DNA of 64,000 bases from a virus, in IMG/VR virus record IMGVR_UViG_3300049855_000345, positions 3,534 through 67,533 of that record, one strand, 5' to 3'. Shown piece by piece: positions 32,341 through 32,812 of the stretch (the first letter of the stretch is position 1; every line of letters begins with the position of its first letter). Both the position numbers and the translations under genes were made by a program. Under the pieces are notes generated by a model. That model did no database searches and was not told the DNA's origin. It saw only the letters and a program-made list of their open reading frames with translations.

Positions 32341-32373
32341 AAAAATGCCGAGAAGCTAGCCTGCTTCTCGGCA
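32341..32373 (-). terminator. rho-independent terminator closing the ncRNA
   Basis: Perfect 11-bp stem TGCCGAGAAGC/GCTTCTCGGCA followed by TTTTT. Confidence 0.85.
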
Positions 32374-32812
32374 ACCGTTTGTTTTGCCTTTTATAGGGCT
32401 GACTACTGTATGCGACACGCGAACGACATTTAAGCCCAACTCTTAGATTTATAACCAACGCCTTACTGTTAGGCCATCCTGATGCTCAATCGCTAAATCA
32501 TCGATATAACTTAGAAACTCAGCATCAGGAGGTGAAATTGCACCACCATCTTTGGTCGAGGGATATTGGGCGATAGAGATCGCGTTTAGTAGCCTTTCTG
32601 AGCTTAGGAGTAATAGTTTTAGTGATTGTTTTGCTGCGTCTGCCAGTTTCGCCACCCCCTGACAAAAGGCTCTATTTAGGAGCCCTTTGTCAGGGAGGCA
32701 GGACTCGAACCTGCACGGAGTTACCCACAAAACAAGATCGTCATATTGACGTTGAGACTAAGGTTTAGCTTGTCTCCTACCCCTCACAACATGTGAAGGG
32801 CGAAATCTTAGC
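32341..32812 (-). ncRNA. large structured RNA with two tandem circularly permuted tRNA-like domains (YrlA-like topology)
   Basis: Domains at 32626-32735 and 32453-32557 each read T-arm, capped acceptor stem, D-arm, closed by an extended anticodon-equivalent stem. Confidence 0.8.

Follow-up and report, generated by a model that had tools for sequence, protein, structure and literature searches.

The window analyzed here is a 64,000-nucleotide stretch of viral DNA, comprising bases 3534–67533 of a 67.5-kb IMG/VR record. CheckV rates this record as 17% complete, which makes it a piece of a very large (jumbo) phage genome. The genes of the window form a replication and recombination module, with a DnaB-type helicase, a RecA-like protein, a topoisomerase, SbcCD, an ATP-dependent ligase and a 5'-3' exonuclease. 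A gap of 557 bases, which separates a 132-aa ORF from a DNA ligase gene, constitutes the RNA locus described in the following; all of these features lie on the minus strand (Table 1). The gene for a DUF7873 protein is located on the same strand, about 480 nucleotides upstream of the first domain of the RNA. The intervening 132-aa ORF is missing from this spot in the closest relative (L002) and has no relative among the viral contigs searched. Some other phages have small Cys-rich or HNH-like ORFs between the DUF7873 gene and the RNA (L124/L125, ~3235–3560; L123, ~3220–3420), and this position, like that of the 132-aa ORF in the window, seems to tolerate insertions.

The window also contains two genes connected with RNA repair. 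One encodes Hen1 (N-terminal domain and methyltransferase) fused to the ligase domain of Pnkp, with the kinase and phosphatase parts of Pnkp absent; in the bacterial repair system, Hen1 and Pnkp are two separate proteins. The other encodes an RlaP-family nucleotidyltransferase of the RNA repair pathway. RlaP occurs in four of five related DUF7873-bearing phage records, 11–70 kb from the module, a frequency for which there is no baseline for comparison, and the Pnkp ligase domain in none of five related phage records.

Table 1. Features of the RNA locus and its surroundings. Positions refer to the window; R1 and R2 are covariance models explained in the text.
Feature	Position	Strand	Remarks
RlaP-family nucleotidyltransferase gene (PF10127)	18944–20029	minus	
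Hen1–Pnkp ligase fusion gene	27632–30286	minus	884 aa
DNA ligase gene	30917–32260	minus	
DUF7873 (PF25283) gene	33219–33956	minus	245 aa; candidate protein partner; Pfam E 5.8e-92
132-aa ORF between DUF7873 and RNA	32818–33216	minus	phrog_28969 (function not assigned)
5' hairpin just past ORF stop	32780–32800	minus	51% paired, nine relatives, MAFFT register
5' tract	32736–32779	minus	6-nt periodicity; lag-6 identity
Domain 1, permuted class-II (tRNA-Leu-type) mimic	32626–32735	minus	83.3 bits with R2
Domain 1 anticodon-stem strands	32735–32727 / 32634–32626	minus	3' strand / 5' strand
Domain 1 long variable arm	32726–32717	minus	
Domain 1 T arm	32714–32698	minus	canonical
Domain 1 acceptor	32697–32691 / 32661–32655	minus	7 bp; 3' strand / 5' strand
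Domain 1 cap	32690–32662	minus	29-nt hairpin
Domain 1 D arm	32654–32636	minus	Leu-type
Linker	32558–32625	minus	6-nt periodicity; 5' strands of Pc/Pd/Pe; conserved 8-nt loop strand (32579–32572)
Domain 2, permuted class-I tRNA mimic	32453–32557	minus	63.5 bits with R1 (the window is a training row)
Domain 2 anticodon-like stem	32556–32552 / 32458–32454	minus	
Domain 2 T arm	32547–32531	minus	
Domain 2 acceptor	32530–32524 / 32483–32477	minus	7 bp
Domain 2 cap	32523–32484	minus	40-nt hairpin
Domain 2 D arm	32476–32460	minus	4-bp D stem
3' strands of Pe, Pd and Pc	32401–32452	minus	includes conserved 11-nt loop strand (32433–32423)
Helix Pa	32779–32774 / 32610–32605	minus	
Helix Pb	32761–32757 / 32623–32619	minus	
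Helix Pc	32594–32588 / 32407–32401	minus	
Helix Pd	32585–32580 / 32422–32417	minus	
Helix Pe	32571–32566 / 32439–32434	minus	
Intrinsic terminator	32338–32373	minus	11-bp stem (32373–32346), 7 G-C pairs, T run
93-aa ORF	32449–32730		

A preliminary description of this locus had proposed two tandem, circularly permuted tRNA mimics. Reading the sequence directly and parsing it, we recovered every element of both. In each domain, a variable region, a T arm, a 7-bp acceptor, a cap and a D arm follow one another in this order, and both domains end in an analogue of the anticodon stem that lacks a loop. Domain 1 has an A at position 73 without a CCA, and its cap extends the acceptor by 11 further base pairs and a 7-nt loop; a D arm identical to that of domain 1 is found in a true tRNA-Leu(tag) of L042, as called by ARAGORN. 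Domain 2 has a short variable region and a G at position 73, likewise without a CCA, and features G55 in its T loop and A18 in its D loop.

The whole is predicted to be one structured non-coding RNA of roughly 440–470 bases, with the first hairpin in Table 1 likely close to its presumed 5' end. The minimum free energy of the 472-nt stretch is -173.9 kcal/mol, compared with -130.2 ± 6.0 kcal/mol in shuffled sequences (z -7.3; none of 100 shuffles as good). The strong terminator proposed to follow the RNA is present, and terminator-like hairpins occupy the equivalent place in L002, L105, L120 and L121. A 6-nt beat runs through the tract ahead of domain 1 and the one that separates the two domains: in the window, the lag-6 identity of the 5' tract is 0.465, whereas shuffles give 0.252 and 3 of 2000 come up to the observed value, and across 14 loci none of 2000 shuffles matches the observed value in either tract, while lags 5 and 7 are flat.

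The preliminary description had also considered that the product might be the protein encoded by the 93-aa ORF across both domains. This frame is indeed open from a TTG start, but as the real product of the locus it is hardly credible: it is not conserved in the relatives, where the longest sense ORF has 23 aa in L002 and 33–79 aa, at other places, in seven further loci; it has no Pfam or PHROG match; and the substitutions preserve base pairs rather than codons. Judging from these comparisons, the frame is an accident of the periodic tract.

A blastn search of the RNA against 50,697 phage records gave no match. Searching viral contigs with the DUF7873 protein instead led to two loci with a homologous RNA right after the gene, L002 and L003 (nhmmer E-values 1.4e-48 and 5.2e-09). 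In L003, a 416-kb relative, a gene for peptidyl-tRNA hydrolase (PTH2) immediately precedes the DUF7873 gene, and a 345-aa 'ORF' upstream of the two (2522–3523) is an array of five tRNA genes. A profile of five DUF7873 proteins yielded 17 viral loci and, with one genome per species, at least 585 confirmed bacterial matches. The best 80 of these at least 585 come mainly from Streptomyces, with others from Ktedonobacterales, Polyangiales and Sinosporangium, and the phage protein is 50–53% identical to these best 80, those of Streptomyces included. A phage-only origin, as the first designation of the RNA suggested, is thus not upheld, since at least 585 bacterial species carry the DUF7873 gene.

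For a wider comparison, we used two covariance models, R1 for domain 2, built from 19 sequences, and R2 for domain 1. Across 97 loci with close DUF7873 genes, namely the window, 16 other viral and 80 bacterial loci, R1 finds a match in every case, at 51.8 bits or more and downstream on the strand of the gene; 78 of these loci were not in its training set. R2 matches 79 of the 97; the remaining 18 loci are single-domain forms, apart from L129, where a large insert splits domain 1.

The homologs bear out the proposed helices, as compensatory change is heavy in the T, acceptor, D and anticodon-like stems. When 19 domain-2 sequences are simply aligned with MAFFT, standard pairs make up 93.2% of the 399 cells, compared with 62.4% in shuffled and 37–47% in slid alignments; there are 136 double-change cells against 48 in shuffles, and 19 of the 21 pairs show compensatory change. 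The T, acceptor and D stems of domain 1 are 99–100% paired in 15 sequences, with double changes, while its anticodon-like stem is out of register in this alignment (42% paired). Across 130 distinct model-aligned rows, 94.8% of the cells are paired. The counts for acceptor, T and D stems are inflated, because pairing in these stems was partly a selection criterion of our domain parser (at least 6/7 acceptor and 4/5 T-stem pairs, plus D-stem pairing).

The anticodon-like stem of domain 2 and the outer helices Pd and Pe lie outside this selection. The former is 82% paired in the 19-sequence alignment and 95% in a nine-sequence alignment; in the nine-sequence alignment of the whole RNA, Pd is 90.7% and Pe 90.6% paired, with double changes at all 12 of their pairs. 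RNAalifold, unaided, predicts Pd, Pe and the anticodon-like stem of domain 2, together with every T, acceptor and D stem. Of the five long outer arms proposed previously, Pd and Pe are therefore confirmed by covariation, but Pc, Pa and Pb fare less well, being 44%, 57% and 54% paired in the MAFFT register of the nine sequences. Compensating versions of Pc and Pa can be seen by eye at shifted positions, which we did not count as a test. An 11-nt GNRA receptor, sought by eye in Pa, was rejected as its 5' strand misfits.

Even a tertiary contact covaries. All four cleanly parsed G55 T loops, in domain 2 of the window, L002, L120 and L187, are accompanied by A18, and 49 U55 combinations by G18; these numbers refer to distinct combinations of T loop and D arm and leave out two G55, one C55 and 20 U55 cases that were parsed otherwise or not at all, mostly because of domain-1 D loops. 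That the locus encodes a genuine structured RNA, one of a DUF7873-associated family, is next to certain. Given the helices and this one contact between D loop and T loop, kept by compensatory change, each domain is expected to adopt the L shape of a tRNA, including a real elbow and an acceptor arm of 7 bp. The alignments also place domain 2 on a conserved stalk of three helices, in which two strands of the internal loops are conserved as well.

As to known RNA classes, no Rfam 15 family reaches its gathering threshold in the window, in line with the novelty originally claimed for the RNA. At E-values up to 10, the search returned seven chance rows from miRNA, snoRNA and lncRNA families and no YrlA row. 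ARAGORN finds no tRNA or tmRNA gene in the window, and the Rfam tRNA and tmRNA models likewise have no match there. Rfam does detect a phage tmRNA (RF00023, 74.7 bits) at 11406–11957, minus strand, of L056, a tRNA-rich viral contig of 148 kb.

The closest resemblance is to the bacterial YrlA RNAs. As set out by Chen et al. 2014 (PMC4201824), these are defined by the order of V, T, acceptor stem-loop and D, by lying on the strand of the Ro60 gene and within ~4 kb of it, and by the 5'-proximal motif GNCGAAN0-1G, which is the proposed Ro60 site. Wang et al. (bioRxiv 10.1101/312249) describe most YrlAs as tRNAs in circularly permuted form whose acceptor stems are closed; in Mycobacterium smegmatis, the acceptor of the YrlA has 7 bp, and the RNA is cleaved by RNase P and given a CCA (PMC4201824; 10.1101/312249). 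The YrlA-like topology noted in the preliminary description is found in the window RNA, with the same permuted order and closed acceptor stem-loops, an exit via the position of the anticodon stem, and the tRNA tertiary contacts kept.

However, its Ro60 proximity, model score and 5' motif all fail. The TROVE domain (PF05731) is absent from the whole 67.5-kb record, which agrees with the earlier observation that the window contains no Ro60 gene. It was found in none of five records (the fragment itself, G001 at 87% and G002 at 100% completeness, G003 and G004), with positive controls, although a Ro60 gene may lie elsewhere in the genome from which the 17% complete fragment derives. The YrlA model (RF02553) gives at best 12.5 bits (E 0.53, in domain 1) against a gathering threshold of 69 bits, in a run that included no genome with a known YrlA as a positive and in which none of 14 control genomes passed; YrlA was also not found at gathering in ten related loci. 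By eye, the sole GNCGAA lies in the D arm of domain 1 and has no G within one base after it. Furthermore, the window RNA carries two domains on a 450-nt scaffold, whereas YrlA, as described, has one on ~100 nt; it has periodic tracts and a DUF7873 neighbor instead of a Ro60 gene, and many DUF7873-associated members encode a CCA in the gene. Because the topology is shared but these three hallmarks are missing, the RNA would work like a YrlA-type tRNA mimic, but is not a YrlA. The 22 phage YrlA loci in the supplements of PMC4201824 could bear on the overlap with the DUF7873-associated family.

Single permuted tRNA-Leu-like elements with closed 7-bp acceptors also occur in the large tRNA arrays of viral contigs (L016/L020/L052, L040, L056/L058/L112, L065 and L085). 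PF25283 was found in none of the five records bearing them, and the record with L040 (G909) has a TROVE match of 28 bits. Some of these elements may be ordinary phage Y RNAs, others a further class.

That a tRNA-like RNA may have some protein other than Ro60 as its partner has been published before. According to 10.1101/312249, Burroughs and Aravind (2016) predicted b7a-tRNA (Band-7-associated tRNA-like RNA), which is tied to RNA repair and has a Band-7 protein as its partner. By the description in this preprint, with which the comparison was made, b7a-tRNA strongly resembles an authentic tRNA and lies beside the Band-7 protein and RtcB; this distinguishes it from the window RNA, with which it would share the feature of a non-Ro60 partner. 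A literature search for circularly permuted tRNAs gave nothing on bacteria or phages among the matches listed.

Permuted order is known from two further systems. Two-piece tmRNA genes encode the 3' half of the tRNA part before the 5' half, with the CCA within the precursor, and permuted tRNA genes of red algae and archaea follow the order 3' half, spacer, 5' half. The window RNA shares this order with both. tmRNA differs in that it has one tRNA-like domain without a D stem, a tag frame and SmpB, none of which was found in the window. A two-piece tmRNA-like rescue RNA whose periodic tract codes for the tag is a very improbable reading. Beyond the permuted order, it could draw on the periodic tracts of the window, which read as alternating polar and Leu-type codons, but this frame is not kept (at most 23 codons in the closest relative), neither ARAGORN nor Rfam calls a tmRNA, the D stems are full and the window has no CCA. 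Moreover, the identity rule of tmRNA is G3-U70, while domain 1 has G3-C70.

The other system, the permuted tRNA genes, regains an anticodon loop by cutting at a bulge-helix-bulge and ligation, and the window RNA has none to regain. The acceptor ends bear on whether its relatives could nevertheless be true permuted or split tRNA genes. In the window, both acceptors are sealed by long hairpins, as originally described, but this does not hold as a family trait: among distinct viral copies, a CCA follows position 73 in 11 of 17 domain-2 and 5 of 13 domain-1 sequences, usually with a short spacer next. Among bacterial copies, whose caps have ~8 nt, the numbers are 3 of 47 and 14 of 56. Position 73 is an A in domain 1 of 9/13 viral and 51/56 bacterial copies and a G or U in domain 2, and the base after it is a C in all but one of the commonest triplets listed. 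As far as these copies tell, the sealed acceptor is a lineage trait and not a family-wide one. In L132, a true tRNA-Ala(tgc) gene (3491–3563) is located wholly within the domain-2 cap (3486–3568), and in L129 a tRNA-like element (~3340–3434; 41 bits with the Rfam tRNA model) caps domain 1. A tRNA gene nested in a cap means that some phages must excise the cap by tRNA processing.

The N73-CCA encoded in many relatives, phages above all, the cutting of caps evidenced by the nested tRNA-Ala, and the RNA ligase-type genes nearby are what one would expect of genes that are cut and joined into decoding tRNAs. Yet no member has an anticodon loop, the anticodon-like stem continues into conserved helices, caps are closed and CCA is missing in the window and in most bacterial copies, and ARAGORN calls no tRNA in the window, so that this reading, too, is very improbable. 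Since the window seals both acceptors without a CCA while relatives have open CCA ends, what the shared function requires is most likely the elbow together with the acceptor helix, not aminoacylation.

We next consider how closely the RNA is linked to DUF7873. In even samples, PF25283 proved rare, being found in 7/301 Actinomycetota, 19/301 genomes of the phylum of Polyangiales and 17/301 Chloroflexota. The RNA lies within 1.5 kb of the gene in all seven actinomycetotal loci and in 9 of 17 Chloroflexota genomes. For the phylum of Polyangiales, this applies to 16 of 17 full-length loci, with the RNA on the opposite strand in four of the 16; the sole exception, L230, comes from a contig of 4.2 kb. 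Five partial Pfam matches have no RNA. In the eight Chloroflexota genomes without an adjacent RNA, none was found in a further 4 kb downstream (1.9 kb, to the contig end, in one case). Five of these genomes were searched whole, and all five have tandem matches of 49–66 bits elsewhere, between unrelated genes, compared with 33–37 bits (maximum 36.6) in five DUF7873-negative Chloroflexota genomes of the same sample. Small as this test is, with five against five genomes, the unlinked co-occurrence (5/5 versus 0/5) is the strongest argument for a joint function that the sequences offer. In addition, the flanking genes in bacteria (protease, aminotransferase, Type ISP enzyme, phospholipase C) are unrelated, so that gene and RNA appear as the unit. 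One chloroflexotal genome, G736, has separate permuted RNA copies at C3:231377–231633, C5:13611–13687 and C65:15994–16147, one of them beside a ThiF/E1-like gene. In sum, this is an apparently undescribed RNA family, widespread in phages and bacteria, that travels with DUF7873.

This distribution weighs on two further explanations. The RNA might be a cis-acting 3' element of the DUF7873 message, such as a tRNA-like punctuation mark, a stabilizer or an attenuator, with no role in trans. While its usual place immediately downstream on the same strand speaks for this, as does the lack of a detectable sigma-70-like promoter in 32200–33300, we consider it quite improbable given the four loci with the RNA on the opposite strand, the eight Chloroflexota genomes in which it is unlinked, and the 132-aa ORF that parts it from the gene in the window; the covariation of a tertiary pair and the conserved stalk are also more than a processing signal needs.

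Alternatively, the preliminary description suggested a decoy, which would act without a protein as a sponge for tRNA-targeting defense nucleases or tRNA-binding factors during infection. Two tRNA elbows in one RNA, the location of the phage relatives in or beside tRNA gene clusters, and the RNA-repair genes of the window would suit such a role. We nonetheless hold it to be rather unlikely, for the RNA lacks the anticodon loop, the usual target of anticodon nucleases, and co-occurs with DUF7873 even if unlinked; its presence in at least hundreds of bacterial chromosomes argues against a phage-only countermeasure, and the Pnkp ligase domain is not shared by the related phage records.

DUF7873 itself is an unstudied Pfam family, and a literature search by this name found no mention of it. 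Its AlphaFold2 model (pLDDT 90.2, pTM 0.75) has four long helices and a long β-hairpin, and neither Foldseek nor VIA-align gives a convincing PDB match. With Foldseek, nothing in the PDB reaches an E-value of 0.001; the top rows are Cas7/CasC (E 6e-3, TM 0.10), and a wide VIA search has a best Z of 8.0, to helical proteins. Cas7 binds RNA with a 6-nt beat, but a Cas7-like fold was rejected, as Cas7 is absent from the 50 rows of VIA-align. NCBIfam gave nothing, and an Atlas search returned DUF7873 clusters only. For a predicted complex of two copies, the score was 0.40 and the mark 0.42. The protein has invariant Asp, Lys, His and Arg residues.

The scaffold for an RNP, which had been suggested alongside the decoy, gains a concrete candidate partner in DUF7873, on the grounds of its linkage and co-occurrence with the RNA; binding itself is the presumed part of this idea. 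Weighing these comparisons, we think that the RNA and DUF7873 probably work jointly, forming a tRNA-mimic particle that is independent of Ro60. Any specific job proposed for such a particle is much less likely. Against the partnership, we count that adjacency is not universal, with the eight of 17 Chloroflexota genomes and the miss in L230, and that the protein has no recognizable RNA-binding fold and a near-neutral pI (5.5–8.6).

In this particle, the RNA would be made with, or just after, the DUF7873 message and would end at the terminator. Its stalk loops or its periodic tracts may be where DUF7873 binds, and the particle would then present one or two heads in the form of a tRNA to machinery that recognizes this form. 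Candidate readers are RNase P, CCA-adding and modification enzymes, RNA repair enzymes, or the ribosome. In a more specific version, which we regard as unlikely, cleavage of the caps by RNase P would leave an RNA of several pieces in which one or two CCA ends are free, and DUF7873 would be an enzyme acting on or through these ends; its invariant Asp, Lys, His and Arg would suit an enzyme. Bacteria and jumbo phages would then have a common machine for a tRNA-linked process, such as RNA repair, ribosome access or tRNA quality control, and the sealed forms, as in the window, would represent a regulated or constitutively closed state.

tmRNA, the tRNA-like ends of viral RNAs and the YrlA Y RNAs are known cases of non-coding RNAs that imitate a tRNA. 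New in this study are the CCA-encoding relatives, the nested tRNA-Ala, the covarying tertiary pair and the co-occurrence of unlinked gene and RNA. The family would add a second, Ro60-independent class of tRNA mimics with its own conserved protein, a class that spans large-genome Actinomycetota, Chloroflexota, the phylum of Polyangiales and many large phages. DUF7873 thereby gains a testable partner, and as the family is present in cultivable Streptomyces, both genetics and biochemistry are feasible. Lastly, the natural series of caps, from sealed acceptors over short closed loops and CCA with a spacer to a whole tRNA gene, is a ready set of variants with which to ask what features of a tRNA matter to the particle.
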